DNA of 63,324 nt, filler included, from Candidatus Hydrogenedentota bacterium (GCA_040752395.1; 9 parts of 9 records of this genome joined end to end with filler, not necessarily neighbours in it), one strand, 5' to 3'; positions 30,150-46,951 are shown, counted from the first letter of the whole stretch. The notes: generated by a model from the letters alone, not told the origin. Program-made: numbers and translations.

Positions 30150-30539
30150 TCATATCTCCATTTTAAGTTCCATAAGAACCATAGGAAGTGGCTTGAGTTC
30201 TCTTGAAATCGGGTCAAGAATCATCCCTAATGCTTCTAATGCTGTTGCTCCTAATAAAAACACTCCTTTTTCTCCAAAAACAACAGGTGCGGCACTAACA
30301 ATGCCCTTGTATTCAAAATAAGCATTGCCAACAGGCTTTTTGATTACCTCGCCATTGGCTAATATAAATTCGCGGGAAGACGATGGTTTTATGTCTAAAT
30401 TTTTTAAGATATATTCCGGGACTACAGAATAAATTGCGCCTGAATCTACAAGGAATTTTATCTTTCTTGATTTTTTAAGATGCTCTGGATTAATTACTCT
30501 TGCTTTCAGGAATGTAATAGCCATCTTTAGATTATTCAC
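30150..30539 (-). CDS. Clan AA (retropepsin-like) aspartyl protease
   Basis: FLVDSGAIYSVVP, LANG, LLGATALEALG. Confidence 0.85.
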   Translation of the reverse strand: MNNLKMAITFLKARVINPEHLKKSRKIKFLVDSGAIYSVVPEYILKNLDIKPSSSREFILANGEVIKKPVGNAYFEYKGIVSAAPVVFGEKGVFLLGATALEALGMILDPISRELKPLPMVLMELKMEI

Positions 30540-31268
30540 TCAAAAATATCAAATTTTTAACTCTACGTAAATATTCTTTTGCTCTTTTTTCTTCAGGCTC
30601 AATGCTTAAAATATAATTTACCTCAGCTAGTGCTTTATCGTATCGCTGGAACCTTATCAAATGGTCAATATACTGAAATCTCACCTCTAAATCAACAATT
30701 CTTTTTTTAGGTTCTTCTTTTACTTCTTTTTTTTGTTCTTCTTTCACAAACGAGAGATCGGGTGATGGACTTTTCATATTTACATAGCAAATATTGTTAT
30801 CTTTATTTAATTCAAGAATAACAGGGTTTTTAAAATATAATTTTATTCTTACACCTTTGTTTCCTGTGTGTAATTGTTTAGCGTATACCCGAGCAAGTGG
30901 TCCCTGTTCAAAATCAGCGCTTGTGGGTAAAATCGGGTTTAAGAGACCATCTTTAATATCTATAACTTTAACCATCTCGTCAGGAAATATAATCTCGCTA
31001 AAATCAATGATGCTATTCGAGACTATTAACATTTTGGCTTCTGTAATGCCTGGATAATATTTGATAAGATTAACCTCTTTTTCACAACTAACACCGATGT
31101 TTAGTTCAGGAACAATCTCTATCTCTCCTATCTCCAGAGAAACAAAATGTCCTTTGAATAACCCTTCATTAAAATCTGAGAAATTTATTTTTTCAGGAAC
31201 AAGTTTTATATTAGAATTAGTTGTTAATGAAACCATACCCTTTCTTTTATTTAAATCGACACATCTAT
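30532..31268 (-). CDS. Pilus-associated protein (AMIN-like plus C-terminal TPR), probably 5' partial
   Basis: Frame open to the contig edge; GVRIKLYF; TPR-like C-terminus. Confidence 0.5.
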
Positions 31269-31368
31269 NNNNNNNNNNNNNNNNNNNNNNNNNNNNNNNN
31301 NNNNNNNNNNNNTTAATTAATTAANNNNNNNNNNNNNNNNNNNNNNNNNNNNNNNNNNNNNNNNNNNN

Positions 31369-31530
31369 ACGGTCTGTTTGTTTGTTTCGCACGCTATACG
31401 TGCTTTGTCAGGTGGCTTCAACTTTACAGATTACTCCATAAGTTGCACCTCAAACTAAATCGTTTACAGACTTTTACGATTACTGACACCTTGCACTCAG
31501 TTAGATTTCAAAGAGCTTATCTTGGCACGC
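31369..31530 (-). mobile_element. Probable group II intron 5' end (domain I), cut by the contig end
   Basis: Starts GCGTGCCAAGATAAG (GUGYG variant); nested stems; GAGGTGCAACTTATGGA-GTAA-TCTGTAAAGTTGAAGCCACCTGACAA resembles domain Ic with a GNRA loop. Confidence 0.55.
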
Positions 31531-31546
31531 TTGAATCTTTTAATCT

Positions 31547-32056
31547 TTATTTCCCACTTGACCCAAAACCTCGCTCCCCTCTTTCTGTTGGACTTAATAA
31601 AGGTACAATAACAGGTTCGAATCGTTCGTATCGCTGAACAATAAGCTGTGCGATTCTATCACCTTTTTGTATCTGAAAATCTCTTTTATTATTGTTCATC
31701 AATACCACCTTAAGCTCGCCACGATAATCACTATCAATCACACCTGCAAGCGTATCAATTCCGTATTGTGCAGAAAGCCCGCTCCGAGGCCAGATTAAAC
31801 CAACACAACCTGGTGATATCTCAATTGAGATACCAGTTCTTACGGTATCATATGATTTTGCTTTTAATACCTTCTTTTCGCAGGAATATACATCGAGCCC
31901 TGCCGAATGTCCTGATACCCGTGTAGGCAATTTAGAATTTTTGTCAATTATCTTTATTTTAAGTTTCTTGTGTCCCAGAGTTCTCTGATGAAACTCATTT
32001 ATCCTGCTTCTTACCTCTCGTTTCTTTTTTCTGATACTTCTCACTTTTTTTACCAC
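31547..32056 (-). CDS. dut: dUTP diphosphatase
   Basis: AGLDV, PRSGL, GVIDSDYRGE, RIAQL, RGERGFGSSG. Confidence 0.96.
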   Translation of the reverse strand: MVKKVRSIRKKKREVRSRINEFHQRTLGHKKLKIKIIDKNSKLPTRVSGHSAGLDVYSCEKKVLKAKSYDTVRTGISIEISPGCVGLIWPRSGLSAQYGIDTLAGVIDSDYRGELKVVLMNNNKRDFQIQKGDRIAQLIVQRYERFEPVIVPLLSPTERGERGFGSSGK

Positions 32057-32083
32057 TCTAATTGATAAATTTTTAGTCTCTTT

Positions 32084-33379
32084 TTATTTTATCCCGAGAC
32101 GTCTGTAGATAATATCGATATTTTTTAGAAACTTTTTAATATCTGTTAAACTATCAATCTCGCTATCGGTCAAATATTTCTTAATCACAGGGTCATTCTT
32201 TAATACCTCATTAAAATCCAGTTGTTTTTTCATAGATTTAAAAGCGATTTTCTGAACGATCTCATACGCTTTTTCTCGAGGGAACCCCTTATCAGTTAAC
32301 GCAAGGAGTACAGCCTGAGTAAAAATCCGTCCTCTGGATTTTTCTAAATTTAATTTAAGATTATCTGTAAAAATTACTATGTCTTTTACCACTGCGGTGG
32401 TTTTATAAATAATGTAATCAAGCAGTATTAATGCATCCTGGAGTATAATCCTTTCAGATGATGAATGAGATATATCCCGTTCAAACCACAGAGCTACATT
32501 TGATAATTCAACATTTGCATAACCTTTGATAGTTCGTGCGAGTCCGCAGATACGTTCGCATATAACAGGATTACGTTTATGCGGCATCGCACTTGAACCC
32601 TTCTGTTTTTTACCAAAGGGTTCCTCTGCCTCGCTTATCTCGGTTATTTGCATCAATCGGATATTGATAGCTATAAGCTCTATTGTAGCAGCAATAACCG
32701 CGATTTCGTTTAAAAGTTCTGCGTGTCTATCACGTTGTAAAATCTGGGTTGATATCTGTGCAGGTCTTAATCCTAATTTTTTACACACATATCGCTCTAT
32801 GAATGGATCGATATTCGAATACGTTCCTACGGGTCCTGATATTTTACCAACTGAAATGATTTCTTTGCATCGGCTTAGGCGCTCGATATTTCGGTTGTTT
32901 ATTGAATACCAGTTAGCAAACCGAAGTCCCATGGTCATCGGTTCGGCATGAACCCCATGTGTCCGACCTATACATACAGCATCTTTATATTTTAATGCTT
33001 TTTCTTTAAGAACCTTATTTAATTCTTTCAAATTTTTTTCAATTATTCTTAATGCATCTATTAATATAAGCGACGTAGCAGTATCAATAATGTCAGATGA
33101 CGTCATACCGATATGGATGTATTTTGATAAATCACCAACATAATAAGCAACAGATTCAAGAAACGCTATAACGTCATGATTCGTTCGTTCTTCTATCTTC
33201 TGTATCTGTTTTACATTAAAATCCGCTAATCTTTCAATCTTTAAAAGATCTGATTTTTTGATTCTTCCAAGTTTTGACCATGCCTCACATACCAGCATCT
33301 CTATCTCAAGATACTTTTCAAATTTATTCTCTTCGCTGAATATCCTCCCCATCTCTTTCCGTGTATAACGTTCTATCAT
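32084..33379 (-). CDS. purB: Adenylosuccinate lyase
   Basis: MIERY, GRTHGVHAEP, GSSAMPHKRNP. Confidence 0.97.
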   Translation of the reverse strand: MIERYTRKEMGRIFSEENKFEKYLEIEMLVCEAWSKLGRIKKSDLLKIERLADFNVKQIQKIEERTNHDVIAFLESVAYYVGDLSKYIHIGMTSSDIIDTATSLILIDALRIIEKNLKELNKVLKEKALKYKDAVCIGRTHGVHAEPMTMGLRFANWYSINNRNIERLSRCKEIISVGKISGPVGTYSNIDPFIERYVCKKLGLRPAQISTQILQRDRHAELLNEIAVIAATIELIAINIRLMQITEISEAEEPFGKKQKGSSAMPHKRNPVICERICGLARTIKGYANVELSNVALWFERDISHSSSERIILQDALILLDYIIYKTTAVVKDIVIFTDNLKLNLEKSRGRIFTQAVLLALTDKGFPREKAYEIVQKIAFKSMKKQLDFNEVLKNDPVIKKYLTDSEIDSLTDIKKFLKNIDIIYRRLGIK

Positions 33380-34182
33380 ATATCCTTAAACTCCTTTCTC
33401 TTTTTATTTATAAACTCTTTATTAATTCTTTCAGCCTCTGTCTCTATATTGTAAATATCTTTAACTCCGAGATCATCTAAAATAACCTTAAAATTAATAG
33501 TATTTCTGTCTTCTTTTTTTATAGCAGAAAGCAAAGCTGATTCATTAAATATTTTTTGAAACCCTGCATTTATTGAGACAGCTATCACTTTATCTGCCGG
33601 GACTGTATCCGTCTTAATAGAAAAATCAATTCCAAGTAATTCGAATAACCCTTTCTCAATCTCCTCTGTCTCTTTATATATCTTTTTTGCCACATCAACC
33701 ATCTTAATACAATAAAATATCTTTTCAGCTATAGTGTATATTTCAAAGTTAAATTCAGCGGTTTTGATCTCTATCTCTCTTATTTTACTTAAATCTTCTT
33801 TTGTTGCTATAACAATATTACCGACTGTCTTTAATAAGAGTTTATCTTTCATCACATTCTCTTGTGGGAACTCAATAATGACTCTTCTTAAATACTCATA
33901 AGTTTTAGAATATTTGTTTTCATAAAAATAAGTTTTAGCTATATAATATAAACTCTCGTCTCGTAAATCCGAAAATGACCTTTTATAAACTTTATCAAGT
34001 AATATGCGAGCCTGTCTGAACTCTTTTAATGGATAATGTGTTTCTATTGCTCTTGTATATAATTCTTTAGCTTCTTCATTTGAGATATAATGCGTATATG
34101 GCTTCTTATTTATATCAGTAAACCCACACACCATAGCCCTGAGGCCGATGTATAAAAGTAGAATAAAAGAGATTTTTTTCAT
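33376..34182 (-). CDS. Secreted TPR-containing hypothetical protein
   Basis: Signal-like N-terminus; DESLYYIAKTYF..IIEFP. Confidence 0.6.
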   Translation of the reverse strand: MKKISFILLLYIGLRAMVCGFTDINKKPYTHYISNEEAKELYTRAIETHYPLKEFRQARILLDKVYKRSFSDLRDESLYYIAKTYFYENKYSKTYEYLRRVIIEFPQENVMKDKLLLKTVGNIVIATKEDLSKIREIEIKTAEFNFEIYTIAEKIFYCIKMVDVAKKIYKETEEIEKGLFELLGIDFSIKTDTVPADKVIAVSINAGFQKIFNESALLSAIKKEDRNTINFKVILDDLGVKDIYNIETEAERINKEFINKKRKEFKDI

Positions 34183-35516
34183 CTTGCTTCGTTAAGATAT
34201 TCTTTAATCTTTTTCTCTGTGGTAACTAATATTTCGTCTCTGTCTAAATCTTTAATACTTTCACCATGTATTTTCTTTTCTCGTTTCACATCTCTTTCTT
34301 TAGAACTCTTTATTAGTTTTAAATAATCATTGAATATCTTTCCCTGTCTTGTGCCATCAACCACTTTTGAAACCATCTTTGCTATATCGTTATGTAATCT
34401 ATCTTCAGCTTTCATAATAAAATAACATAACCTGATAAAAAATTTATAAGCATTGATGGCCTGGAACAAATTATCCTCACAAAGAAAATTTTTCCCTAAC
34501 CCTGTATAATCCTCATCAGTATAAACCTTTTTTTTCGAAAAAGAACATAATCGTTTGTAAGCATTAAATACTTCTCTTAATATCTCCTCGCGAAAAATAG
34601 ACTTATACTCGCAGATATCCCGACTGCGTTTCTCAAACTTTATCTCGTTTCTTGCGATAATATATGCCCCATTATCTATTACCCACCCTGGTAGTATTTC
34701 ATTATACGCGGGCGAAATTTTATTATATAAGAAAGAAGGAGAATTTATCAGAGAGAACGGCATCTCTAATCTCTGCGGTAATAATGTTAAACCCGTTGCG
34801 ATAATAGTGTAAGGTGCGTAAATAAAATTACAAGGATATTTTATATTAACACCGATACCGAAAAATAATCCTTCACCCACATCACACTCCTGGTCAGGTG
34901 CTTTGCCGGTATGATTTGAACCTATCAATGCCCCGGCTCCAACGTTTCCCCTGCCCTCAAACCATCTTACCGCGATAATAAGAGATTTATGATGAATCCC
35001 TGTTAGAGATCCTATCAGTGATGCCGTTATTTCAGCCTGCTCAACCACACTCCCTTTATCTATAAAACTATTTTTAACTATTGCATAATGTTTAACCTCA
35101 GCATAAGAGTTTATCACACTCTCAATAATAATGGCACCTGTATCAATAATTGCATTATTCTTTATAAGGCTGTTTTTTATCGTAACATTATTACCGATAT
35201 ATGCATTATCCAGAATAGTAGAATTCTCTATAAATACGTTCCCATCTATCCTCACACCCTTCCCTATCCGACAATTCCTTATTATACCGCTGCCTGTAAT
35301 AATAGTGCCATTATCAATGGACGTTTTCTGTTTTACAATACTCTTTTTTTGTATCGCATCTTTCTTGATATCGCTAATCTCAGTATCCTCATAAACTTCC
35401 ATCTCTCTGTGCATCTCATTACCCGCAAGAATTCTAACCGGCAGTCCGCAGCAGGTCTCTTCTTTGTCTTCTATAATAAAATTGCCTGATATCAAAACGT
35501 CTTTCTTATTTTTCAT
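34179..35516 (-). CDS. Left-handed beta-helix protein, DUF4954-like
   Basis: Hexapeptide repeats, GSNHTGKAPDQE, GLFFGIG..KYPCNF, PFSLINSP. Confidence 0.65.
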   Translation of the reverse strand: MKNKKDVLISGNFIIEDKEETCCGLPVRILAGNEMHREMEVYEDTEISDIKKDAIQKKSIVKQKTSIDNGTIITGSGIIRNCRIGKGVRIDGNVFIENSTILDNAYIGNNVTIKNSLIKNNAIIDTGAIIIESVINSYAEVKHYAIVKNSFIDKGSVVEQAEITASLIGSLTGIHHKSLIIAVRWFEGRGNVGAGALIGSNHTGKAPDQECDVGEGLFFGIGVNIKYPCNFIYAPYTIIATGLTLLPQRLEMPFSLINSPSFLYNKISPAYNEILPGWVIDNGAYIIARNEIKFEKRSRDICEYKSIFREEILREVFNAYKRLCSFSKKKVYTDEDYTGLGKNFLCEDNLFQAINAYKFFIRLCYFIMKAEDRLHNDIAKMVSKVVDGTRQGKIFNDYLKLIKSSKERDVKREKKIHGESIKDLDRDEILVTTEKKIKEYLNEAR

Positions 35517-35552
35517 TTAGCCTCTTTTGGCAGGAACAAAAGCTAAACAAGC

Positions 35553-35939
35553 TCAGCTAGTCTTTACTACAATGTCGCTTATAATATTAGCAGCTTCATT
35601 ACAGCGGTCAGCAGCATTCGAAAGATGCCTGTAAACCTCTCGGTATTTTAATACAAAAATAACATCAGTGGAGTTAAAAAGTTCTGCAAGCGCTTCTCTA
35701 TACCTGTGCTCAATAAAATTCTCAGCCTTTTTTGCTCTAACCACGTGTTCCTCAACTGCTTGTGGATTATCATTTAAAAGAGTTATAGAACAAGTAATCT
35801 CTTTAGCAGCATTAGCAATCGCATTTATTATATCCTTAATAAAAATGTTTGGAATTATCTTGAAAAGTCGCACTTCTTCAACAGTAGATTTAGCGTAATC
35901 AATCATATCCTCGGTTTTTTCTGCATGCTCTTTTAGCAT
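35553..35939 (-). pseudogene. DUF47/PhoU-like phosphate transport regulator, apparently internally deleted
   Basis: DMIDYAKSTVEE, KYREVYRHLSNAAD, DIVVK; only 128 aa; N-terminal FFKMLKEHAEK joins directly to the mid-protein motif. Confidence 0.6.
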
Positions 35940-35952
35940 CTTAAAAAAATCC

Positions 35953-36083
35953 CTCCTCTGAAAAACGCTGTAACTCTAATGATATCAAGTAGAAGCAAGA
36001 AGCAAGAGGCAAGAAGCAAGATAACGGAAGAAGTGAGAGGTATCAGGACAGGCTACAGGCTACGGGCTACCCGTAGTCTGCAA
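35953..36083 (-). repeat. Modular intergenic element, 3' half
   Basis: Reverse complement of GTAGCCTGTCCTGATAC..CTTCTTG array..TTTTTCAGAGGAG. Confidence 0.9.
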
Positions 36084-36789
36084 ATTGAGAGATAGTTGCT
36101 GTAAGCAACCGTCAAAAATACATAGTGTCTTATCTTTAATATGGTGTCAATAAAATATTTTCCTTTTCAAAAACAAGAGACCCCATTTTTATTTATCATA
36201 CATATCGCCTGGCCAGGTATCAGGAGAACACGTGCCAGAAGGACAATACGAACTATCAGGACAGGTATCCCTTACTCTAACCCGTAAACTGTGTCGCCAC
36301 TGGCGTTATATCTCACCTCTTTCGTAAACTGATATATGTCGTCGTATAGTTTACTATCCTTAAGGTATTACTTACCTGTTTTTATACCTTAAGAAACGGG
36401 CTATTTATTCCGAATTGTGCTGAAGTCAAACATTTTGTGGACACTTTCAATAATGTTCCTATTAAAATACATATTATAGATATAATACATAATATATTCT
36501 CAACCATTTGAAATAAATAATTAAAAAACCGATAACTATAATTAAAAATATAATTTAATAACTATACTTTAGCAGAAAATAAGTCAATGGATTTCATTTA
36601 AGCAGCCATTTTCAAGGTATTAAATAATGATTCTAATTTTTTATGGTTCACAGGGAAGTGATATAAACTATCAAAAATTAATTAGTGATNNNNNNNNNNN
36701 NNNNNNNNNNNNNNNNNNNNNNNNNNNNNNNNNTTAATTAATTAANNNNNNNNNNNNNNNNNNNNNNNNNNNNNNNNNNNNNNNNNNNN

Positions 36790-36977
36790 TCGCAAGTCGT
36801 GAGTCAAAACAGGACTCAAGACTCAAGACTTTTCAGCAGGCTCTGGGCTTTTGTCTCCAGCCGGCTATAGTCCGTAGCCTGTAGCCTGTCCTGATACTTC
36901 TCACTTCTTCCGTTATCTTGCTTCTTGCCTCTTGCTTCTACTTGATATTATTATAGTTACAATGTTTTTCAGAGGAG
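36790..36977 (+). repeat. Modular intergenic element at the contig start
   Basis: GACTCAA, GTAGCCT and CTTCTTG blocks plus terminus TTTTTCAGAGGAG; no start codon follows this copy. Confidence 0.9.
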
Positions 36978-37044
36978 ATATACTAACTATTAACTTTCAA
37001 CATAATTATTGACATAACAAAGTGGAAAAAGTAAAAATTAGATA

Positions 37045-37073
37045 TTGACTTTTGAGAATAAAGTAGATATAAT
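37045..37073 (+). promoter_or_regulatory. Sigma70-type promoter for secG (near-leaderless transcript)
   Basis: TTGACT-17 nt-TATAAT, 12 nt before the ATG. Confidence 0.65.
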
Positions 37074-37085
37074 ATAAAAAAGTTT

Positions 37086-37403
37086 ATGTTAGCCACTATA
37101 TTGACTATAATTTATTTAATTGTTTGTGTTTTGCTTATTATCGCGATACTTCTTCAGCAGGACAAAACAGCAGGGAGCGGTTTAGGTGCTGCGTTTGGCG
37201 GGTCATCACAAACTGTATTCGGGTCTCACAGCGGTGATATTCTTTCTAAAGCCACAACCTGGCTGGCTGTAGGATTTATGGTGATAGCTTTACTTTTATC
37301 ATTTACTTATACAAAGAAATCTTCTATTACGCAGGAAGCTGGCGCTTTTTCTCCAGAGGAACATCCAACGGTACCAGTGAGTACCCCAGAAGCAGGGAAA
37401 TGA
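37086..37403 (+). CDS. secG: Preprotein translocase subunit SecG
   Basis: ILLQQ..GLGAAFGG.SQTVFG..LSKAT, two TM helices. Confidence 0.95.
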   Translation: MLATILTIIYLIVCVLLIIAILLQQDKTAGSGLGAAFGGSSQTVFGSHSGDILSKATTWLAVGFMVIALLLSFTYTKKSSITQEAGAFSPEEHPTVPVSTPEAGK

Positions 37404-37475
37404 GTTTCTCGATGCATTAATCACAGCCCAAAGACATCACAGCAATCTCTGAAGTATAAATATATGAAACCAGTC

Positions 37476-37590
37476 TCTGGAGTCTTGAGTTTTTAGCTGG
37501 AGCCCATAGCCTGTACCTTGTCCTGATACTTCTTACTTCTCACTTCTTACTTCGTGAAATTATTAGAGTTTACAAAGTTTTTTGGAGAGA
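37476..37590 (+). repeat. Degenerate modular element
   Basis: GTCCTGATACTTCTTACTTCTCAC and decayed terminus TTAGAGTTTACAAAGTTTTTTGGAG. Confidence 0.7.
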
Positions 37591-37594
37591 AAGT

Positions 37595-38146
37595 ATGAGA
37601 CTTGGTGTGTTTAGATGTGTTTCAAAATGTGCTAATTATGAATATAAATACGAATGTCCTTATTTTTTTGAAAGGAGCATCGATTATTATCCTTATTTCA
37701 GAGAATGTTGTCAGAAATATACCTTGATAGGGATAATAAAATTTATACTCTATGTTATTTTTCATCCTTTTTATTTACTCCAATTATTATGTGGTTATGG
37801 AGGCGAAATTTATGCAAGGAAATATGAAACGACTCGAAATATTAAAAATAATGAGGATTTGTTATTTAAAGAGATAAAATTGAATCAGGTTACGTTACCC
37901 CAAGAAAGAAAGATTGAAAAAAAAGAGGCTGTTATAAAGAAAGAGGTTGAGATAGATGAGGAGTTAGAGGTACTGGAATTAATAAAGAATGAGATTATTC
38001 AGCTAAAGAAAGTGAAAAATTTATATCCTTACAGACACGATTTAATATCCATGAAAGAGGAAGCGATTGATATATTTATCGATGAATTAAGAAAGATAGA
38101 AACAAAGAAAAAGAAAGGAGAGTTTTCAATTAGAAGGATTAAGTAG
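37595..38146 (+). CDS. Hypothetical protein (Cys-rich N-terminus, TM, charged C-terminus)
   Basis: 183-aa ORF with SD-like GGAGAG; no family recognised. Confidence 0.55.
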   Translation: MRLGVFRCVSKCANYEYKYECPYFFERSIDYYPYFRECCQKYTLIGIIKFILYVIFHPFYLLQLLCGYGGEIYARKYETTRNIKNNEDLLFKEIKLNQVTLPQERKIEKKEAVIKKEVEIDEELEVLELIKNEIIQLKKVKNLYPYRHDLISMKEEAIDIFIDELRKIETKKKKGEFSIRRIK

Positions 38147-38228
38147 CAATATTCTCTTGATATTTTTATAATATTTTTTAGAAATTTAAATATCAAAACC
38201 ATTATGATATAGACGCAAAAGGAGTTTA

Positions 38229-38394
38229 ATGAGACTTAATAAAAGAGAGTTAGAAATTATTATTAATGAGGCAAAATCAATCTTTGGGGAGGATGCAGAG
38301 ATTAGATTATTTGGCAGCCGCACTTCAATACTCAATAGATAAGATTCAAAAATTATTCCCATTAAGTAAAGAAAAGATTGAAGATATTAAAGAA
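38229..38394 (+). pseudogene. Collapsed MNT (nucleotidyltransferase) / HEPN-type toxin-antitoxin remnant
   Basis: MRLNKRELEIIINEAKSIFGEDAEIRLFGSR, then in another frame LQYSIDKIQKLFPLSKEKIEDI, cut by the element. Confidence 0.6.
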
Positions 38395-38758
38395 GGAGTC
38401 AACATGAGCGCGGTTTGCGCTCTACACTATTGGGTTCTTGGGTTCTTGGGTTATTGCGTTTTTGGGTTTTTGCGCTCTACACAAAGCATGAAAAACTAAA
38501 GATGATATGAAAAGAGTCGTGAGTCAAAACAGGACTCAAGACTCAAGACTTTTCAGCCAGGCTTTTGGCTTCTGGCTCCAGCCGGCTGTAGTCCGTAGCC
38601 TGTAGCCTGTCCTGATACCTCTCACTTCCCACTTCTTACTTCTTACTTTTTTCGTTATCTTGCTTCTTGCTTCTTGCTTCTTTCGTTATCTTTCTTTCCG
38701 TTATCTTGCCTCTTGCTTCTATTTGATATTATTAGAGTTAGAATGTTTTTCAGAGGAG
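38395..38758 (+). repeat. Modular intergenic element, longest copy (about 365 bp), ending in the rpsC SD
   Basis: All core modules in order, from GGAGTCAACATGAGCGCG to TTTTTCAGAGGAG. Confidence 0.93.
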
Positions 38759-38764
38759 AGTCTA

Positions 38765-39427
38765 ATGGGTCAGAAGGTGCCACCAAAAATTCAGAGACTG
38801 AAAATTATTGAAGACTGGGATTCCAAATGGTATGCAAACAAAAATATCTATGCTAATTATCTTCACGAAGACATACGGATACGTGAATGGGTCAGAAAAG
38901 AGTATGGTCAGGCCGGGATATCTAAGATAGTTGTTCAGAGGTATCCGCAGTTTATAGTTATAAATATACACACAGCGAGACCTGCTATTTTAATTGGGAG
39001 AAAAGGTGCAGAGATAGAGAGGATAAGAGGATGGTTAACCAGGATAAGCGGAAAGAAGTCAGATGTCAATGTTATAGAGATAGAGAATCCTCTGCTTGAT
39101 GCCCAGCTTGTAGCTGAGAGTATAGCAAGAGCATTAAAAAGAAAGATCACTTATAGAAGGGCTATGAAACAGGCTATGGGTTTAGCATTAAAAGCAGGTG
39201 CACATGGCATAAAAGTTATGTGTTCCGGCAGGCTTGGTGGTGCTGAGATTGCAAGGTCTGTCTGGTATCGAGAAGGAAGGGTACCTTTACATACATTAAG
39301 AGCAAATATAGATTATGGCTTTTCACAATGTTTTGCTAATTATGGTGTTATCGGTGTAAAGGTATGGATTTTTAAAGGTGAAATTATACCTAAAAAAGAG
39401 ACCAGAGCCGAGTCAAAGGAAGGTTAA
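38765..39427 (+). CDS. rpsC: 30S ribosomal protein S3
   Basis: MGQKV, IGRKG, SGRLGGAEIAR, GRVPLHTLRA; true start at ATG 38765. Confidence 0.98.
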   Translation: MGQKVPPKIQRLKIIEDWDSKWYANKNIYANYLHEDIRIREWVRKEYGQAGISKIVVQRYPQFIVINIHTARPAILIGRKGAEIERIRGWLTRISGKKSDVNVIEIENPLLDAQLVAESIARALKRKITYRRAMKQAMGLALKAGAHGIKVMCSGRLGGAEIARSVWYREGRVPLHTLRANIDYGFSQCFANYGVIGVKVWIFKGEIIPKKETRAESKEG

Positions 39428-39433
39428 GATAAG

Positions 39434-39847
39434 ATGTTATTGCCTAAAAGAGTAAAATACAGAAAAAAGCAGAAAGGCAGGATGCGGGGTAAAGCTAAAC
39501 GCGGGACTGAATTACATTTTGGCGACTATGGTTTAAAAGCTATCGAAGCGAACTGGGTTACTAATAAACAGATCGAGGCTGCTCGGGTCGCTATTATGAG
39601 ACATATTAAACAAATTGGTAAACTCTGGATAAAAATATTTCCGGATAAACCGATTACCAAAAAACCCTTAGAGACAAGGATGGGTAAAGGCAAAGGTAAT
39701 GTTGAGGGCTGGGTCTGTGTTGTAAAGCCTGGGAGGATACTTTTTGAGCTTGCCGGGTTACCAAAAGAATCAGCTATTGAAGCATTAAGAATAGCTTCAT
39801 ATAAGCTACCTATCAAAACAAGGATTATCAGTGCAGGTGCATCATAA
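39434..39847 (+). CDS. rplP: 50S ribosomal protein L16
   Basis: [18 protein letters not shown]. Confidence 0.98.
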
Positions 39848-40065
39848 TGTTAGCAAGAGAATTAAGAGAATTCAGCAATGATGAATTAACTGAGAAACTG
39901 CTTGATTTTAAGAGAGAACTTTTTAATTTAAGAGTACAGCGTGTGTCAGGTGAGATTAAAAACCCGCGAAGGATTAGAGAGGTAAAAAGGACTATTGCGC
40001 GGATATTGACTATTATGAATACCCGGAAAAAGCAGGAGGCATTAAAGATTCAGAATGCAAAATAA
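39847..40065 (+). CDS. rpmC: 50S ribosomal protein L29
   Basis: ELFNLR..IARILT. Confidence 0.97.
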
Positions 40066-40393
40066 AAAATTAAAAGTTAAACCCATAAAAAGGAAAATTT
40101 TAGAGGGTGTTATTGTTTCTGATAAAATGGATAAAACACGGGTTGTTTTAGTACAATCACGAGTTATTCATCCTCTGTATAAAAAGGTTATAACAAAAAG
40201 AAAGAAGTATTATGCCCATGATGAGAAAAACAAGTATAAAAATGGTGATGTAGTTAAGATTATTGAATCGAGACCTATTTCGCGGCTGAAACGATGGCGA
40301 ATATTAAAAAAGATTGGTGAAAGAGAAGAACCGACTCCGGTGACTGAGTTACCGGGAGGGTTAGAAGATGATACAGCAGGAATCAAGACTTAA
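40055..40393 (+). CDS. rpsQ: 30S ribosomal protein S17
   Basis: [24 protein letters not shown]. Confidence 0.97.
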
Positions 40394-40736
40394 CGTGGCT
40401 GATAATACTGGTGTAAAAGAGATCAGCTGTATTAGAATCCCTAAATATTCTAAACGCAGATATGCAACTATTGGTGATATTATTATCGCATCAGTCAAGG
40501 ATGCTGTACCAACTTCAAATATTAAAAAGGGTTCGATAGTCAAAGCTGTCATTGTGAGAACTAAACGAGGATTGAGGAGAAGAGATGGAACATACATTAA
40601 ATTTGATAATAATGCTGCAGTGTTAATACAGGATGACGGGACGCCTATTGGAACAAGGATATTTGGTCCTATTGCAAGAGAATTAAGAGAAAAAGAGTTT
40701 ATGAAGATAGTTTCATTAGCACCTGAGGTGCTCTGA
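40368..40736 (+). CDS. rplN: 50S ribosomal protein L14
   Basis: [22 protein letters not shown]. Confidence 0.98.
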
Positions 40737-40747
40737 TGGGGTAACAG

Positions 40748-41071
40748 ATGACAGGTTTATTTGTTAAGAAAGGCGATACTGTAAAAATTTTATCTGGTAA
40801 AGACAAAGGGAAAACAGGTAAAATTTTGAGAGCATTTCCTAAACAGGGCAGACTTATTGTTGAACATATTAATTTTCAGAAAAAGCATCAGCGACCAACT
40901 CGTGATAATCCTAAAGGTGGGATATTAGAAAAAGAGGGACCTATTTATGCAGCAAAAGTAATGGTGATATGCCCAAACTGTAGTAAACCCACACGGATAA
41001 GCAGAAGATTTTTAGCTGATGGTAGAAAAGTAAGATACTGCAGGAAATGTAAAGAAGATATTGATAAATGA
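40748..41071 (+). CDS. rplX: 50S ribosomal protein L24
   Basis: KKGDTV..GKDKGK, with CxxC pairs. Confidence 0.97.
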   Translation: MTGLFVKKGDTVKILSGKDKGKTGKILRAFPKQGRLIVEHINFQKKHQRPTRDNPKGGILEKEGPIYAAKVMVICPNCSKPTRISRRFLADGRKVRYCRKCKEDIDK

Positions 41072-41099
41072 GAAAAGGATGAAAAACAAGGAGATGTAA

Positions 41100-41660
41100 A
41101 TGGTTGCGAAGAAGTATGTGCCGAGAATAAAGAAAAAATATTATGAGGAAGTAGTACCAGAACTAAAAAAAAGGTTAAAAAGAGAGAACGTGTTATCTTT
41201 ACCGAGGTTGAAGAAGATAGTTGTAAATATGGGTGTTGGCGATGCGTTAAAAGACCCAAAAACTCTTGATGGAGCCATGAAAGATTTAAGAGATATAACA
41301 GGTCAACAACCGATTATAACGCGTGCCAAAAAATCAGTATCTAATTTTAAACTGCGAGCGGGTCAATCCATAGGTTGCTGTGTCACACTTACAGGGAATA
41401 AGATGTATGAGTTTTTTGATAGATTTGTAAATTTTGCGATACCTCGAATCAGGGATTTTAAAGGATTGGACCCGAAAAGTTTTGATAAGAGAGGGAATTA
41501 TAATTTAGGGATTAAAGAGCAAACGATTTTTCCTGAGGTTTCTTATGATTCTATTTACAAAATAAGAGGTATGGATGTGGCAGTTGTTACTTCGAGTGAT
41601 AAGGATGGCGAAGCAATGCTTCTTCTTGCTCTTTTAGGGTTCCCCTTTAAAAAAACGTAA
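41100..41660 (+). CDS. rplE: 50S ribosomal protein L5
   Basis: KIVVNMGVG, PRIRDFKG, EQTIFPE. Confidence 0.98.
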   Translation: MVAKKYVPRIKKKYYEEVVPELKKRLKRENVLSLPRLKKIVVNMGVGDALKDPKTLDGAMKDLRDITGQQPIITRAKKSVSNFKLRAGQSIGCCVTLTGNKMYEFFDRFVNFAIPRIRDFKGLDPKSFDKRGNYNLGIKEQTIFPEVSYDSIYKIRGMDVAVVTSSDKDGEAMLLLALLGFPFKKT

Positions 41661-41729
41661 TTCATCACTTAGAGGTGAGATTAAGAAGTAAGAAGTTCGA
41701 GGTGGAAAGAAGTAGGAATTATAAACATT

Positions 41730-41915
41730 ATGTCAACAACAGCAAAAATGGCTAAATTAAGAAAGAAACCTAAATTTAAAATCCGACATCATAACAGATG
41801 TCCCATCTGTGGTCGTGCTCGCGGCTATATACGTAGATTTAATATGTGTCGTCTTTGTTTCAGAGAGATGGCTCATCGAGGCTTTATACCAGGTGTAGTA
41901 AAGGCAAGCTGGTGA
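41730..41915 (+). CDS. rpsN: 30S ribosomal protein S14, zinc-binding type Z
   Basis: [23 protein letters not shown]. Confidence 0.97.
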
Positions 41916-41923
41916 GTTATATT

Positions 41924-42094
41924 TAGAGGCAAGAGGCAAGATAACGATATTTCTTGCGTTATTGGGTTATTGCGTTTTTGCGTTCTTGCGCTCTACACAA
42001 TATATGAAAAACTAAAGATGATATGAAAAGAGTCGTGAGTCAAAACAGGACTCGAGACTCAAGACTCAAGACTTTTCAGCAGGCTTTTGGCTTT
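41924..42094 (+). repeat. Modular intergenic element after rpsN, running into the contig end
   Basis: Inverted GAGGCAA array, TTGCGTTA array, TATGAAAAACT block, GACTCAA array. Confidence 0.9.
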
Positions 42095-42200
42095 NNNNNN
42101 NNNNNNNNNNNNNNNNNNNNNNNNNNNNNNNNNNNNNNTTAATTAATTAANNNNNNNNNNNNNNNNNNNNNNNNNNNNNNNNNNNNNNNNNNNNTGGGCC

Positions 42201-42833
42201 ATGAAACAAGAGATAGAAAGCAGTGATGGCATCCTTATTGAGATTGCAAACAAAATGATTAATCATTTTGAAAGATTATCTTCAAAAATAACCACTCGAA
42301 AATATGTTAAAGAAAAAATATTATACATTACTCAATGCGAGATCATCTCTGAAGGAATGGATATATCAACCAATGCAAAAGTAAGAAAAATTATAGAAAC
42401 ATTAATGGAATGTACTCAAAAGCTTTTAACCCATTGGTTTGGTAGCCACATCGAGATGTCAGCACTTGAGAAAATAGTCTGTTTTTACTCGGCCGACTAC
42501 GCTTTCTCATTCAGTATTAAATTCTTAGAAGCAATAATAAATGAAACGATGGACAATGATATTGATAATCTCTATTGTAAAATAAAAATTATTCCCTATG
42601 TCTTAACCGAGTCTTCAAAGTTCCCTAATTACGAGAAATCAAGGGTCGCTTTATCAAAAATCCCATCTACTTTATGTACACCAAATTGTGTAGTCGTTCT
42701 TCCTGAAACCTATGAGATACTCGATCCTCAATTCAAAAGGGGTTTACAAAAAGTCTACGGCGACCTTGACACAAAAACAGGCTCATCCGAGGTCTTCTAT
42801 AGATACTCACCGCTATCCGAAGAATCTACCTAA
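42201..42833 (+). CDS. Hypothetical protein, possibly 5' partial
   Basis: 210-aa ORF open to the contig edge; no family recognised. Confidence 0.5.
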   Translation: MKQEIESSDGILIEIANKMINHFERLSSKITTRKYVKEKILYITQCEIISEGMDISTNAKVRKIIETLMECTQKLLTHWFGSHIEMSALEKIVCFYSADYAFSFSIKFLEAIINETMDNDIDNLYCKIKIIPYVLTESSKFPNYEKSRVALSKIPSTLCTPNCVVVLPETYEILDPQFKRGLQKVYGDLDTKTGSSEVFYRYSPLSEEST

Positions 42834-42907
42834 CGTGGTATAGCTGTGCCTCTGTGCCTGACATCTGATGTCTAAATATTTTTACATACGTAGGAACAAA
42901 TAAGTAT

Positions 42908-43612
42908 TCACGTAAGTCTTAATATCTCTTGGGACATTTCGTCCATAACTTTGATAACGTTAATATTTGCTTTTATTGCATTCTCATTAATAATTGAGTG
43001 CACAAACTCGCTCGCTAAATCTACATTTGATGACTCTAAATAACCCTGAACTATCTCACCTAAACCACCAAAACCAGGTAAACCAGGTACAGGCTCACCA
43101 GAATTAGCACTCTTGTAATACAAATTTTCCCCGGCAGCAATTAATCCTGAAGGATTGGTAAATTTTACTAATTCTATCTGCCCAACTCTCTGAGATTCAC
43201 CATTGGTATAAGCAAAGACTTCGCCTTTTTTAGTTATAGTAAGATTCTCAGTGTTTTCTGGTAGTTTTATTTCGGGTGTGATTGGGTAACCCGAAGAAGT
43301 AACAACTCTACCCGTGGCATCAATGTTAAAATTACCGTCTCTTGTATAAGCCGTGGCCTTAGGGGTTAAAACCTTGAAAAATCCATCACCCGCAACCGTT
43401 AAACTCAAATTATCTCCAGTCAACATCATAGACCCCTGGGTGAAGTCTCTGCTTATACTTGAAATCTGAGTACCGCTAATATTTAATCCATTCTGATAAA
43501 CATCCGAGGACTTGAAACCCGTAGTATTAACATTGGCTACATTATTTGCTATAACATTTTCCCGTGATAGACCTGTTTTTATTGCAGAAAGCGGTGTAGA
43601 AAAATCAATCAT
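42908..43612 (-). CDS. Flagellar hook/basal-body rod family protein (FlgG-like)
   Basis: ANNVANVNTTGFK, GDGFF, YTRDGNF, LESSNVDL. Confidence 0.9.
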   Translation of the reverse strand: MIDFSTPLSAIKTGLSRENVIANNVANVNTTGFKSSDVYQNGLNISGTQISSISRDFTQGSMMLTGDNLSLTVAGDGFFKVLTPKATAYTRDGNFNIDATGRVVTSSGYPITPEIKLPENTENLTITKKGEVFAYTNGESQRVGQIELVKFTNPSGLIAAGENLYYKSANSGEPVPGLPGFGGLGEIVQGYLESSNVDLASEFVHSIINENAIKANINVIKVMDEMSQEILRLT

Positions 43613-43727
43613 AAAAACACCTCCATGTAAAATATTAAAACTTCCTATGTCATATTATAATGAATTTTAAAAATATTTCAAATGAATTTTTAAAATTTCT
43701 GTAACCCCTCAAAACGTGTGAAAAAAT

Positions 43728-43750
43728 TGTAGTGAGCATCTTTAGATGCG
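43728..43750 (+). repeat. GTAG-type REP-like palindrome
   Basis: Identical to 2269-2291 on the minus strand. Confidence 0.75.
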
Positions 43751-44036
43751 TCTTTAAGATAAGGTATTTATATTATTTTTAACAAATTATGGTTCATTCG
43801 TAAAAAACCGGCCGCCTCCCATACAATTTATTAATTTAAATTGCAACTTAATTACGAAGGACCCCAAATTATTAAAATGGGTCTTTTGTCCCTTACTACA
43901 TTTAATCGTTCTTAGTCTTCGAGGAAGTTTTTTAGATTCTTATATCGTGAGCTCTGGGCAATTCGCGCAGAATTTTAACTCAACTATATAGCGTCAAAAG
44001 TCCCTATATAGAAGTTTGGTTGGTGGCGCCGCCACC

Positions 44037-44840
44037 TTAGGTTTGTGGTACAAATTTCTCTAATTTACTTAACACTTCTCTATTTTTATCAGGAAAAGTT
44101 AAAACCACATTGCCTATGTTAATCAGGGCAACCATATCCTCAAAATGAACTGATAATTTCCTGTCTTCTGTAACAACTGTCCATTTATCATCCTGCACCT
44201 TTGCTTTCCAGGTACCGACATTCACCATAGGCTCGAAACATAATACCATCCCGGGTTTTAATTCTTCACCTGTGCCGGGGGTACCAAAATTCGGTATCTG
44301 TGGCTCCTCGTGCAGTTTCTCACCTATTCCATGGCCAACCCAGTCCCTTATAACACTGAACCCCTGATATTCTGCATAACTCTGGATAGCATTTGATATA
44401 TCACCAAGCCTGTTCCCTGGTTGTGCAAGCTGGATGGCTCTACGTAAACATTCTTTTCCTGTTCTTATTAATCTTTTTGCAGTGCGTGATATTTTACCAA
44501 CTGCATATGTTCTTGTTGCATCTCCATATACCCCCTTATAAAATACCCCTATATCAATTGAAAGGATATCACCATTTTTTATAACTCGATTTTTTGACGG
44601 GAGGCCATGAACAACCTCTTCGTTGATTGAGATACAAATAGAAAACGGATAATTCATATATCCCAAAAAAGCCGGTTTTGCATTGAAGCCTGTTATAATT
44701 CCATAAGCTATCTCATCAATCTCGGCAGTAGATATACCATCTCTTATATATTCTTTTATTTTTTCGAATACCCGAACAACTATCTGACCTGCTTCGTACA
44801 TCAATATTAATTGTTCTTTAGTTTTAAGCGGGATAGCCAT
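44037..44840 (-). CDS. map: Methionine aminopeptidase type I
   Basis: SINEEVVHGLP, GHGIG..HEEP, EPM, HFED. Confidence 0.97.
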   Translation of the reverse strand: MAIPLKTKEQLILMYEAGQIVVRVFEKIKEYIRDGISTAEIDEIAYGIITGFNAKPAFLGYMNYPFSICISINEEVVHGLPSKNRVIKNGDILSIDIGVFYKGVYGDATRTYAVGKISRTAKRLIRTGKECLRRAIQLAQPGNRLGDISNAIQSYAEYQGFSVIRDWVGHGIGEKLHEEPQIPNFGTPGTGEELKPGMVLCFEPMVNVGTWKAKVQDDKWTVVTEDRKLSVHFEDMVALINIGNVVLTFPDKNREVLSKLEKFVPQT

Positions 44841-44853
44841 TCTTGTCGCTTCG

Positions 44854-45501
44854 CTACATTGTAAATTCAGACTTCAGCCGAAACAACGTAGCTTTTATCT
44901 CGTTGTATATTTCAAATGGAGTGCCCTCACCATTCACTTCGTATAGAACCTTTTTCTTTTTATAATATTCAATAAGCGGTGTTGTCTGATTTAAATAAAC
45001 CGTTATCCTTTTTTTAACTGTTTCTACATTATCATCTGCCCGTTTAACAAAATTACCGCCACACTTTTTACATTTATCGCCGGTATCAGATGGATCCTTG
45101 TTGATACCGCATTTTTCACATATAAAGCGATTGGTTAATCTGTCTAAAATCGTTCTTTGTGAAACCGATATAAGTAGAACACCTGTTAAAGGTTTTTTAT
45201 TCTTTAAAAGAAACTTATCAAGCTCTTCAGCCTGAACAATAGTTCTTGGATATCCATCAAGTAAAAAGCCTTCTAAAATACTACTTAGTTTTTCATTAAC
45301 GATACCGACAACGATATCATCTGGAACAAGCTGTCCCCTGTCTATATATTCTTTTGCTTTAATCCCTAAATCGGTTTCTTTAGCTATAGCTTCCCGAAAA
45401 ATATCGCCTGTTGCTATATGGGGCAATTTAAAATCTTTTACAATTCGTTCAGCCTGCGTGCCCTTACCTGAACCCGGTGCTCCTAATAAAACCCATCGCA
45501 T
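44854..45501 (-). CDS. adk: Adenylate kinase with zinc lid
   Basis: GAPGSGKGTQ, LDGYPRT, CxxC..CxxC. Confidence 0.97.
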   Translation of the reverse strand: MRWVLLGAPGSGKGTQAERIVKDFKLPHIATGDIFREAIAKETDLGIKAKEYIDRGQLVPDDIVVGIVNEKLSSILEGFLLDGYPRTIVQAEELDKFLLKNKKPLTGVLLISVSQRTILDRLTNRFICEKCGINKDPSDTGDKCKKCGGNFVKRADDNVETVKKRITVYLNQTTPLIEYYKKKKVLYEVNGEGTPFEIYNEIKATLFRLKSEFTM

Positions 45502-45619
45502 ATTATTCTACCCCCTGGCGCTTCGTTCCATTGTAAATTGTAAATTTATCCACCCTTCTCTAAAAAAATGCGGAAGTAATCTCCTTATCCAGAATTTAAA
45601 ACGCAATAACGCAATAACG

Positions 45620-46951
45620 CTACCTGCCACGTATCCTGCCCCTCTTTACAAAACCATCATAATGCCGCATAAGTAAATGAGATTCTATCTGTCTCATAGT
45701 ATCAAGGGCTACCCCTACAATAATAAGTATCGAGGTACCACCAAAAATATTAGTGAGTCTTGAGGGCAGTTTTAAATATATAACTAAAAAATCAGGGAGA
45801 ATAGAGATAAGAGCAAGAAAAATAGCTCCTGCAAGCGTTATTCTCGTAAGTATAAAATCTATGTATTGAGCAGTTGTTTTACCTGGCCTTATACCAGGGA
45901 TAAATCCGCCATGCTTTTTTAAATTATCCGCAACGTCCTTGGGATTGAATTGTATAGCTGTATAAAAATAAGCAAAAAGTATAATTAATACAGAATACGC
46001 AACAAACCAGAAAACCGACCCATATCCCATATGTAAAGCGATCCATGCAAGAAATTTGTTAGCAGTATAATCTCTTGAAAACATCGCCATCATACTCATC
46101 GGAAACATAAGAAACGACGATGCAAATATAACAGGCATAACACCTGCGCTGTTAACCCGTAAAGGTAAACTTGTCCCTGCACCACCATAAACTTTTCTCC
46201 CGATTATCCGTTTTGCATATTGAATGGGTATCTTTCTATGACCCTCTGTTATTACCACAGATGCCGCAGTAATAAATGTGAAAAGAGCCCCTATGGCTAT
46301 TAATGAAAATAAACCAAGTTCTCCCATCGTGAAGATTCGATATGTCTCATATAAAGCCTGTGGAAATCTGGAAATTATCCCTACAAATATTAATAACGAG
46401 ATACCGTTACCAATCCCTCGCTCAGTTATCTGTTCACCCATCCACATAAGAAAAGTTGTACCGCAGGTCATAGTCACAACAGCTACTAAGTAAAACATAA
46501 ACGTCTTTTCAGGTACCACAGGCCCTGTTGCACCTACCTGATTCGAGACATAAATAGACCAGCCTATGGCCTGTATCATTGATAATACAATTGTTCCATA
46601 ACGAGTATATTGCGTTATCTTTCGCCTGCCATACTCACCTTCTTTCATCAAAGCCTCTAATTGAGGTATAACAACAGCAAGAAGCTGAAGTATTATCGAG
46701 GCACTTATATAAGGCATTATACCCAATGAAAATATAGAAAACTCAAATAATGCACCACCAGTAAACATATTCGCAAAACCTAATAACCCGCCTGCCATCG
46801 TTCCAGCAAGCGATTTTAATGCTATGGGGTCAACACCCGGGGTTGGAATGTGAGCACCTAGTCTGTAAATAAAAATCATTGTCAGAGTAAAAATAAACTT
46901 TTTTTTCAGGTCAGGTATTTTAATAGCATTTAATATGGCTTCTTTAATCAA
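45620..46951 (-). CDS. secY: Preprotein translocase subunit SecY
   Basis: LGIMPYISASII, GIGNGISL, IPGIRPG, GGTSILI; likely TTG start at 46951. Confidence 0.98.
   Translation of the reverse strand: MIKEAILNAIKIPDLKKKFIFTLTMIFIYRLGAHIPTPGVDPIALKSLAGTMAGGLLGFANMFTGGALFEFSIFSLGIMPYISASIILQLLAVVIPQLEALMKEGEYGRRKITQYTRYGTIVLSMIQAIGWSIYVSNQVGATGPVVPEKTFMFYLVAVVTMTCGTTFLMWMGEQITERGIGNGISLLIFVGIISRFPQALYETYRIFTMGELGLFSLIAIGALFTFITAASVVITEGHRKIPIQYAKRIIGRKVYGGAGTSLPLRVNSAGVMPVIFASSFLMFPMSMMAMFSRDYTANKFLAWIALHMGYGSVFWFVAYSVLIILFAYFYTAIQFNPKDVADNLKKHGGFIPGIRPGKTTAQYIDFILTRITLAGAIFLALISILPDFLVIYLKLPSRLTNIFGGTSILIIVGVALDTMRQIESHLLMRHYDGFVKRGRIRGR

Follow-up and report, generated by a model that had tools for sequence, protein, structure and literature searches.

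A modular, orientation-specific repeat family ending on a Shine-Dalgarno sequence in the intergenic spacers of a Candidatus Hydrogenedentota genome

The window analysed here, a joined stretch of 63,324 bases from Candidatus Hydrogenedentota bacterium (GCA_040752395.1), harbors a discrete, dispersed family of non-coding elements of ~120-364 bp that is abundant in the spacers between genes, with the reported copy (38395-38758, + strand) ending directly upstream of rpsC. That this family represents an oriented dispersed element which ends on, and supplies, a Shine-Dalgarno (SD) sequence is well founded. With regard to its origin, we incline with moderate confidence to a non-autonomous, orientation-specific element that is joined to its targets at GGAG, is co-transcribed as a leader and derives from one composite ancestor multiplied into intergenic and intercistronic spacers. 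Within this reading, insertion at SD sequences is plausible, with some support from one truncated gene and from copies bounded by GGAG.

A blastn search with four copies as queries identified 18 element-like intervals of 21-364 bp, amounting to 2,257 bp or 3.6% of the window. These intervals occupy 17 of the 34 non-genic segments of at least 30 nt and overlap annotated open reading frames (ORFs) by just 35 bp. A first-pass annotation, made from the sequence alone, had proposed at least 13 copies or fragments sharing ordered modules, and the 18 intervals bear this out with one module order: the unique modules are colinear in every copy holding at least two of them, in the order U1, octamer arrays, U3, hairpin A, U5, hairpin B, U7, pyrimidine tract and terminus. 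The unique linkers are 90-100% alike between loci with unrelated flanking genes, and the unit number of the arrays differs from copy to copy. Copies begin at different modules, drop internal blocks or hold inverted pieces (36-84; 41924-41946), and a decayed copy (37496-37582, 86% identity over 58 nt) coexists with near-identical ones. The earlier description as a heptamer array needs correction, as several of the units turned out to be octamers. In the reported copy, the following modules were delineated:

38395-38427 (+): U1, the 5' end, with GGAG, a 5-nt spacer, ATG, a 6-bp hairpin (GAGCGC-GGTTT-GCGCTC) and CTACAC
38428-38487 (+): H1, arrays of octamers/heptamers (TTGGGTTC, TTGCGTT) with the direct repeat TGCGCTCTACAC on either side; Tandem Repeats Finder period 8, 5.4 copies
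38470-38484 (+): U2, a copy of the TGCGCTCTACAC direct repeat
38488-38509 (+): U3, the unique segment ATGAAAAACTAAAGATGATATG; as read from the sequence, each of the three sense frames contains a stop
38512-38553 (+): array hairpin A, (GAGTCnn)n, loop AAAACAG, (GACTCAA)n; inverted repeat I2/I5, 86-92% complementary
38558-38609 (+): array hairpin B, (GGCTTTT)n, palindrome CAGCCGGCTG, (GTAGCCT)n; 26-nt arms, 73% complementary, 0 nt apart
38612-38722 (+): pyrimidine tract of CTTCTTA, CTTGCTT and CGTTATCTTGC arrays; 83% pyrimidine
38723-38758 (+): U8, the terminus, whose final GAGGAG precedes the ATG of rpsC (38765) by 6 nt

The identity of rpsC is given by TIGR01009 (E 1.4e-81). U1 is present in three copies (5630, 20426 and 38395), and both changes seen in its stem retain a G-U/G-T pair on the sense strand. 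For U3, a single pattern fits four sense copies, and the segment occurs once inverted, in copy 1. The pyrimidine tract of the reported copy consists of 30% C, 53% T and 8% G, and G amounts to 0-10% in five other copies. The ATG at the 5' end was considered as a coding start and rejected, as frame and length vary among the three copies, one of which stops after 8 codons.

The 3' end is the best defined part of the family. The 36-nt terminus is matched six times in the window at up to 3 mismatches, compared to 0 expected from 100 shuffles, and two further termini deviate from it, one (5714-5749) by lacking 1 nt and the other (20690-20702) by being short, with TTTTTCAGAGGAG fused directly to a CTTCTTA array. 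The final 13 nt (TTTTTCAGAGGAG) are identical in all eight termini, and past GAGGAG the column identity drops to 3-5 of 8 with a single exception, one column at 7 of 8. A sharp 3' boundary at GAGGAG had been proposed before, and it is present in 8/8 termini with unrelated flanks. In three copies that are partial or decayed, the end lies next to another SD, namely GGGAGG of acpP, AAGGAG of pilT and GGAGAG of gene 37595.

When the spacing between terminus and start codon was mapped within the window, six of the eight termini were found 6-13 nt before a start codon, with gaps of 6 nt for rpsC and rplO, 8 nt for ffh, 9 nt for lpxC/fabZ, 12 nt for gene 5762 and 13 nt for a DUF47 remnant. The suggestion that the terminus serves as the SD of core genes therefore applies to these six and fails for the termini at 20702 and 36977, which cannot be the SD of the next gene because they lie 39 and 109 nt away from its start. 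The gene downstream of 20702 belongs to a phosphodiesterase family, and secG downstream of 36977 has a promoter-like sequence of its own (TTGACT-17-TATAAT). That the exact end is intact in these gene-less termini argues for a defined end of the element and not for selection of the ribosome-binding site (RBS) alone. Two of the six assignments had to be amended. The start of lpxC/fabZ after the terminus appears to be an ATT at 141 and not an ATG, with homologues beginning at it or within a few residues, and the DUF47 gene behind its terminus is a 5'-truncated remnant. The stored lpxC/fabZ gene call (447 aa) begins at a TTG 15 codons upstream, inside the element.

A promoter inside the terminus was also considered and dismissed: TTGATA and TACAAT are just 10 nt apart, and the promoter scan of the sense strand of the reported copy was empty. 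As a separate observation, a second recurring leader motif, TTTACAATG followed by a GAGCGAAGCGACA-like sequence, is found at 10728, 44864 (-) and 45536 (-), lies 8-100 nt upstream of rnc, map and adk and has TTACAATG in common with the element terminus.

At the other end, the three U1 copies start with GGAGT, 4 nt and ATGAG, and a variant at 25640 starts with GGAGTC, in agreement with the earlier statement that intact 5' ends begin at GGAG. The 5' hairpin starts 13 nt from the 5' end in 3/3 U1 copies. GGAG is found at both ends of the internal full copies at 5630 and 38395 (n = 2), where the 3' GGAG belongs to the conserved terminus. At both of its ends, the 5630 copy has GAGGAG, the 5' one of which follows a promoter-like TTGAAT-17-TATTAT at a distance of 8 nt; judged from this arrangement, the element would form the entire 5' leader at this locus. 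No terminal inverted repeat joining both ends was detected, the best long-range pair being an 8-nt match between U3 and the terminus.

The orientation of the element is similarly constrained. All multi-module copies with a known downstream gene (11/11) are in sense orientation, and three further multi-module copies at contig ends are co-oriented with the upstream gene. Two isolated short fragments, 7202-7233 and 32013-32047, are antisense. The copies and fragments other than the reported copy are as follows:

1-131 (+): rearranged copy before lpxC/fabZ, with an internal inverted segment at 36-84; terminus 9 nt before the ATT start
5630-5749 (+): short copy (U1, H1, H7, terminus), 12 nt before gene 5762
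7202-7233 (+): isolated antisense fragment (AAGAAGC array) between tRNA-Phe and fabD
9014-9100 (+): partial copy (hairpin B, U7, H6), ending beside GGGAGG of acpP
19038-19123 (+): partial copy (variant left arm, hairpin B), ending beside AAGGAG of pilT
20305-20325 (+): fragment (H3, U5) at the contig end after pilT
20426-20702 (+): copy with intact 5' end and short terminus, 39 nt from the next start codon
25640-25821 (+): variant copy with GGAGTC start, CAAAGGCA octamer array and then U3-U5, reaching the contig end
32013-32047 (+): isolated pyrimidine-tract fragment, antisense to the flanking purB and dut
35953-36070 (-): copy from the right arm of hairpin B to the terminus, abutting the 5'-truncated DUF47 ORF
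36790-36977 (+): copy running from the contig start through the terminus, with secG 109 nt away
37496-37582 (+): degenerate copy with diverged terminus, ending at GGAGAG of gene 37595
41924-42094 (+): copy after rpsN, with an inverted H7 piece (41924-41946) and then H1 to H4, reaching the contig end
47395-47482 (-): terminus and pyrimidine tract, 6 nt before rplO, reaching the contig end
52842-52846 (-): AGGAG as the last bases of the rph contig; the GTG start of rph follows after 9 nt
59436-59668 (-): copy between rpe and ffh with other arrays, hairpins A and B, pyrimidine tract and terminus, 8 nt before ffh

The region 35940-36689 comprises 750 nt without an ORF of at least 60 aa; apart from its element copy, this stretch is AT-rich and unexplained.

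Tandem arrays are generally frequent in this genome. The window holds 47 arrays of period 7-8, corresponding to 7.5 per 10 kb, compared to 0.55 per 10 kb in 160 other bacterial loci (1.9 Mb), a 14-fold difference. This agrees with long simple sequence repeats or STRR-like arrays, in which tandem units of 5-11 nt, mostly heptamers, are over-represented in non-coding DNA. Tandem 7-8-nt arrays unrelated to the element lie in other spacers (25575-25638, 59642-59672, 51102-51127, 4379-4404 and 40041-40081), with the units ATTCAAA(A), CTATACC, AAAACCC, ACTTTAG and ATTAAAA. The density of arrays, the number of unrelated units (ATTCAAA, CTATACC, AAAACCC and ACTTTAG) and the variation in unit number between copies would all be in line with arrays that arose locally by replication slippage, a process favouring units of 7-8 nt in some genomes (long simple sequence repeats), in which case the likeness between loci would be convergent. 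However, slippage cannot yield near-identical, non-repetitive linkers of 11-36 nt in one fixed order, so that this explanation is already contradicted and appears highly improbable.

A second trivial explanation is that collapsed or chimeric repeats in a poor draft, or amplification, created the family as an artefact. The window consists of nine whole contigs (1-20325, 20426-25821, 25922-31268, 31369-36689, 36790-42094, 42195-47482, 47583-52846, 52947-58085 and 58186-63324), which are joined by N44-TTAATTAATTAA-N44 linkers, and eight of the nine span 5.1-5.4 kb. Such short contigs, and the fact that 7 of the 18 contig ends fall inside recognisable modules (1, 20325, 20426, 25821, 36790, 42094 and 47482), would be expected from an artefact. 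Against it, nine copies are assembled through between unique genes on both sides and differ mutually in sequence and unit number, and the flanking genes are intact and in the expected operon order (fab, lpx and spc genes); we therefore consider an artefact highly unlikely. The previous annotation had located five further contig ends, besides that of rph, inside the element; that ends lie in modules is correct, with the count raised to the seven given here. Four of these seven are located in hairpin B. The rph contig stops at AGGAG (52846), as noted before, and the contig at 42195 opens 6 nt upstream of the ATG of an uncharacterised gene, and both cases suggest that an element terminus was where the assembly broke. 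A group II intron domain (RF02003, 62 bits) at 31362-31502 (-), at the very start of a contig, implies that the genome also carries assembly-breaking group II introns.

Two loci bear signs of movement or recombination. The ORF of the DUF47 family behind the 35953 terminus (35553-35939, -) encodes 128 aa, while homologues comprise 188-207 aa in all but 3 of 119 among the matches listed; the similarity starts at homologue residue ~75-88, and Pfam covers only model positions 80-213. The N-terminal part of the gene was not found elsewhere in the window. The nearest homologues among the matches listed are 55-64% identical and mostly named Elusimicrobiota. The truncation indicates that the element, or a rearrangement at the element, replaced the first third of the gene. 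The tblastn alignment extends into GAGGAG (R-x-D-x-F aligned to a conserved REDIF), which would place the junction at an internal SD-like site; it needs a 4-residue gap and may be due to chance. The second locus is that of rpsC. In a comparison set of 80 RpsC loci, rplV ends at most 150 nt from rpsC in 79/79 loci with enough upstream sequence (median gap ~36 nt). No rplV is present in the window, neither in 38147-38764, directly ahead of rpsC, nor elsewhere, and rpsC is preceded by the 364-bp element, gene debris, an uncharacterised gene, secG and another copy of the element. Taken together, the truncated DUF47 gene and the broken rplV-rpsC linkage speak for an element that is mobile or recombinogenic and less for a leader that is purely benign. 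The side-by-side presence of near-identical and decayed copies, and the exact end retained by the two gene-less termini, count among the signs of movement or recombination as well.

The orientation and positions of the copies may also be read as those of a selected regulatory leader cassette, whose RNA is useful to the host and which was spread or homogenised by recombination or gene conversion and not by transposition. Proposed roles for such a cassette include a heptamer-binding protein that coordinates the translation of core genes, loading of S1 or Rho, and RNase III processing at the array hairpins. The strictly sense orientation (11/11 copies), the positions before ribosomal-protein genes, ffh, lpxC and acpP, and the G-poor, C/U-rich tract preceding the SD speak for it. 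So does the predicted RNA structure. The heptamer arrays occur as inverted pairs, (GAGTCnn)n with (GACTCAA)n and (GGCTTTT)n with (GTAGCCT)n, forming helices that are periodically interrupted because each heptamer provides 4-5 pairs and a 2-3-nt mismatch. The region with hairpins A and B folds better than shuffled controls in the four copies holding both (z -2.5, -2.8, -4.0 and -4.7), four copies with one hairpin or part of it reach z -1.4 to -3.8, and rnc is encoded in the window. In addition, in the ribosomal-protein operon of an unrelated Dadabacteria genome, heptamer arrays in inverted arrangement separate a stop codon from the SD that follows, and a comparable role has been proposed for TAACTGA repeats (PMC4679880).

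However, this rival meets several difficulties. Decayed, truncated and internally inverted copies, two gene-less termini, one truncated gene and one broken universal linkage look like the wear of a selfish repeat. Inspection of hairpin B for covariation by eye gave nothing convincing, as changes in the arms fall at non-pairing positions, and no specific structure at the SD was found. A search of Rfam with the element returned no match at gathering score, the best (E 0.021) being a microRNA model; the hits at gathering score in the window are restricted to tRNA-Phe and the group II intron domain. The downstream genes have no common function. On this balance, we regard a selected regulatory cassette as rather unlikely.

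For a mobile leader element, the reading that we prefer, the following course can be envisaged. The element would join its target at GGAG, oriented so that its own terminal GGAG precedes whatever follows; thus, an insertion at a SD would leave the gene translatable, while insertions elsewhere would truncate genes or get lost. It would then be transcribed as the leader of the downstream gene, with its GAGGAG serving as the RBS, and the pyrimidine tract could act as a landing site for ribosomes/S1 or as an entry site for Rho. Recombination among the many copies would disrupt gene order and assembly. Single-strand HUH transposition characteristically uses a short junction motif that is fixed, with elements inserting in a single orientation. 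As far as sequence features permit a judgement, the absence of inverted ends, together with a junction motif of 4 bases and a subterminal hairpin on the 5' side, would fit a candidate HUH-type transposase acting in trans better than a DDE-type MITE (miniature transposable element with inverted repeats).

More far-reaching, and put forward tentatively as a possibility, is a new class of mobile element that targets the SD itself and is copied from SD to SD, swapping the native leader for a portable one composed of hairpins, a pyrimidine landing tract and a strong RBS, and having colonised a large share of the core genes, including ribosomal-protein operons. In a bold variant, copying may proceed via RNA, with the site of pairing between the SD and the 3' end of 16S rRNA as the priming point of reverse transcription, which would explain an end fixed exactly on the SD. 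In a more conventional one, a single-strand HUH transposase would cut at GGAG.

A number of observations weigh against a mobile leader element joined at GGAG. The two termini at 20702 and 36977 are not at start codons, and in the copies 9085 and 20686 similarity seems to extend a few bases beyond the SD (TAGTG), so that the copied unit may not always end at GGAG. Just three intact 5' ends are available, and at 38395 the 5' GGAG is not the SD of a gene; it lies in apparent gene debris, a weak NTP_transf_2 N-terminus (38229-38339, Pfam E 0.14). The earlier proposal of a non-autonomous element inserting at SD sequences, or of a portable leader, is retained for the dispersed, oriented and SD-ended character of the family, while insertion at the SD with restoration of the RBS is drawn from these three 5' ends. 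No clear 3' subterminal hairpin was identified, just A/T-rich pairing of 4-5 bp. A scan of 54 ORFs in the window revealed no transposase, recombinase or reverse-transcriptase family and no TnpA/RAYT gene, which accords with the first-pass annotation, where neither terminal inverted repeats nor a transposase had been visible. No pair of filled and empty sites was seen, copy number varies between the arms, and mosaics could arise by recombination of leaders without transposition. At the level of the RNA, the fold of the whole element is not significant (z -0.99 for sense and -1.75 for antisense), and the pairing of a conserved CCUCU with the SD (AGAGG) is weak (5 pairs, -3.3 kcal/mol) and without compensatory change. 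The predicted accessibility of the SD at the six gene-adjacent termini (0.01-0.27) equals that of composition-matched shuffles. Sequestration of the SD by CCUCU was dropped accordingly, given the weak consensus helix and an accessibility identical to shuffled controls, and on these model predictions a function at the RNA level is unsupported. Finally, all evidence stems from 63 kb of one fragmented assembly.

The host is a deep-branching, isolated Gram-negative lineage. Its window has a G+C content of ~35% and an ordinary Gram-negative gene set, comprising an lpxC/fabZ fusion, lpxA, lpxI, fabD-fabG-acpP-fabF, rnc and uvrD as well as type IV pilus genes, flgG, part of the S10/spc ribosomal operon, secY, adk, map, ffh, rph and others. 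Among 5.8 billion proteins, the closest Ffh is 51% and the closest LpxC/FabZ 55% identical; RpsC loci in a genome-contig collection reach at most 57% identity to the RpsC of the window, and LpxC/FabZ loci in metagenomes at most 50% to the window protein. At ~50-55% protein identity for the nearest relatives, none of them is usable for an empty-site comparison at the DNA level.

If the element is indeed mobile, one selfish sequence that survives by carrying a ribosome-binding site along would have rewritten roughly every second intergenic spacer of the lineage, essential operons included, interlocking a mobile element with the translation signals of its host. It would constitute a natural "portable 5' leader" with separable parts (array hairpins, pyrimidine tract and SD) and would account for the poor assembly of the genome and for broken linkages such as rplV-rpsC.

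To place the family among known repeats, it was compared with described systems and sequence collections. Being small, non-coding and present in many copies (18 intervals in 63 kb), it resembles MITEs; it has neither their terminal inverted repeats nor the hairpins at both ends of IS200/IS605-type elements. REP/BIME, REPIN-RAYT and IS200/IS605-derived elements are intergenic, lack terminal inverted repeats, contain imperfect palindromes and form mosaics, with single palindromes of 20-40 nt as units, and GTAG is a hallmark of REP. The window element is likewise intergenic and mosaic, has palindromes, a short putative junction motif and no terminal inverted repeats, and one of its heptamers starts with GTAG. 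It differs in that its arms are heptamer arrays, in being 10 times longer and in the missing 3' hairpin. Heptanucleotide tandem arrays in non-coding DNA are also shared with the cyanobacterial STRR/long simple sequence repeats, which are concentrated in the non-coding DNA of few lineages. To our knowledge, those are single arrays with no conserved unique flanks or SD end and have never been described as an ordered composite.

Searches of collections were negative. A pattern scan for the element in the genome-contig collection gave 0 hits among the matches listed, which is a weak negative; a 31-mer of U3 had 0 matches in metagenome contigs, and the terminus and the hairpin-A core had 0 each in viral contigs. 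By blastn, there was no match to phages, and plasmids matched only a (TTGGGTT)n array (2 records). The literature, supplementary files lying outside the search, yielded no description of such a composite element, and the motif strings did not appear in the publications searched.

The closest published parallel is provided by the TAACTGA heptamer direct repeats of marine Beggiatoaceae, which also occur in some Cyanobacteria and Bacteroidetes (MacGregor, 2015; PMC4679880). Both systems place sense-oriented heptamers in tandem directly ahead of start codons, also in ribosomal-protein operons, with downstream genes that share no function, and both come from fragmented genomes of uncultured bacteria; a post-transcriptional role was suggested for TAACTGA (PMC4679880). 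The TAACTGA system has one favoured heptamer, is given no unique flanks and overlaps the place of a missing SD (PMC4679880), whereas the window element has at least 8 different units whose order is fixed, and adds to them unique linkers, a pair of array hairpins and a canonical terminal SD. TAACTGA arrays are absent from the window; at 2 mismatches, two matches, both located in ORFs, were obtained vs 0.86 expected. The BOX elements of Streptococcus pneumoniae (Croucher, 2011; PMC3049150) are likewise composite, with constant end modules, a variable tandem middle and a size of tens to hundreds of bases, and are transcribed with neighbouring genes, whose expression they can alter. BOX is described there as having terminal inverted repeats and target duplications (PMC3049150), whereas the window element has no terminal inverted repeat and is set apart from that description by its many array types, fixed orientation and SD terminus.

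Simpler relatives of the array hairpins were encountered elsewhere. A locus of Candidatus Dadabacteria CSP1-2 (L070, LDXN01000025.1) contains 18 period-7/8 arrays in 20.6 kb, in a ribosomal-protein region (3552-20130), as inverted pairs that fill the spacer from the stop codon to the next SD. In one spacer, TTAGGAA xN and TAATTCC xN are followed by AGGAGG and the start of the next ribosomal-protein gene; in another, ACATGAT xN and TCATGCA xN lie ~25 nt before a start, and an ACAAATT/AATTTGG pair is located between rpsC and the next gene. These arrays include a recurrent family, with 13 hits of the core pattern at up to 2 mismatches vs 1 in the control. In a 350-kb sample of CSP1-2, 18 of the 46 arrays fall in the 20-kb ribosomal-protein region, the overall density being 1.3 per 10 kb. 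CSP1-2 and the window organism are not closely related (10 proteins, mean identity 52%); the CSP1-2 arrays include the octamer CACAAAGG, which is also present in the window. Clusters of heptamer/octamer arrays with partly complementary pairs were also seen beside lpxC homologues in two unrelated metagenome contigs, L113 (576-865, 47% G+C) and L157 (1205-1325, 61% G+C). Array hairpins before the RBS in CSP1-2 and paired arrays next to lpxC in L113 and L157 indicate that such hairpins are not unique to the window genome, and their occurrence in an unrelated candidate phylum suggests a wider, undescribed leader feature of uncultured bacteria. In comparison to the window element, CSP1-2 has single hairpins, no long composite, no common terminus and a low copy number. 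What is distinctive here is that such parts are fused into a single long, ordered unit whose SD end is fixed and whose copy number is very high.

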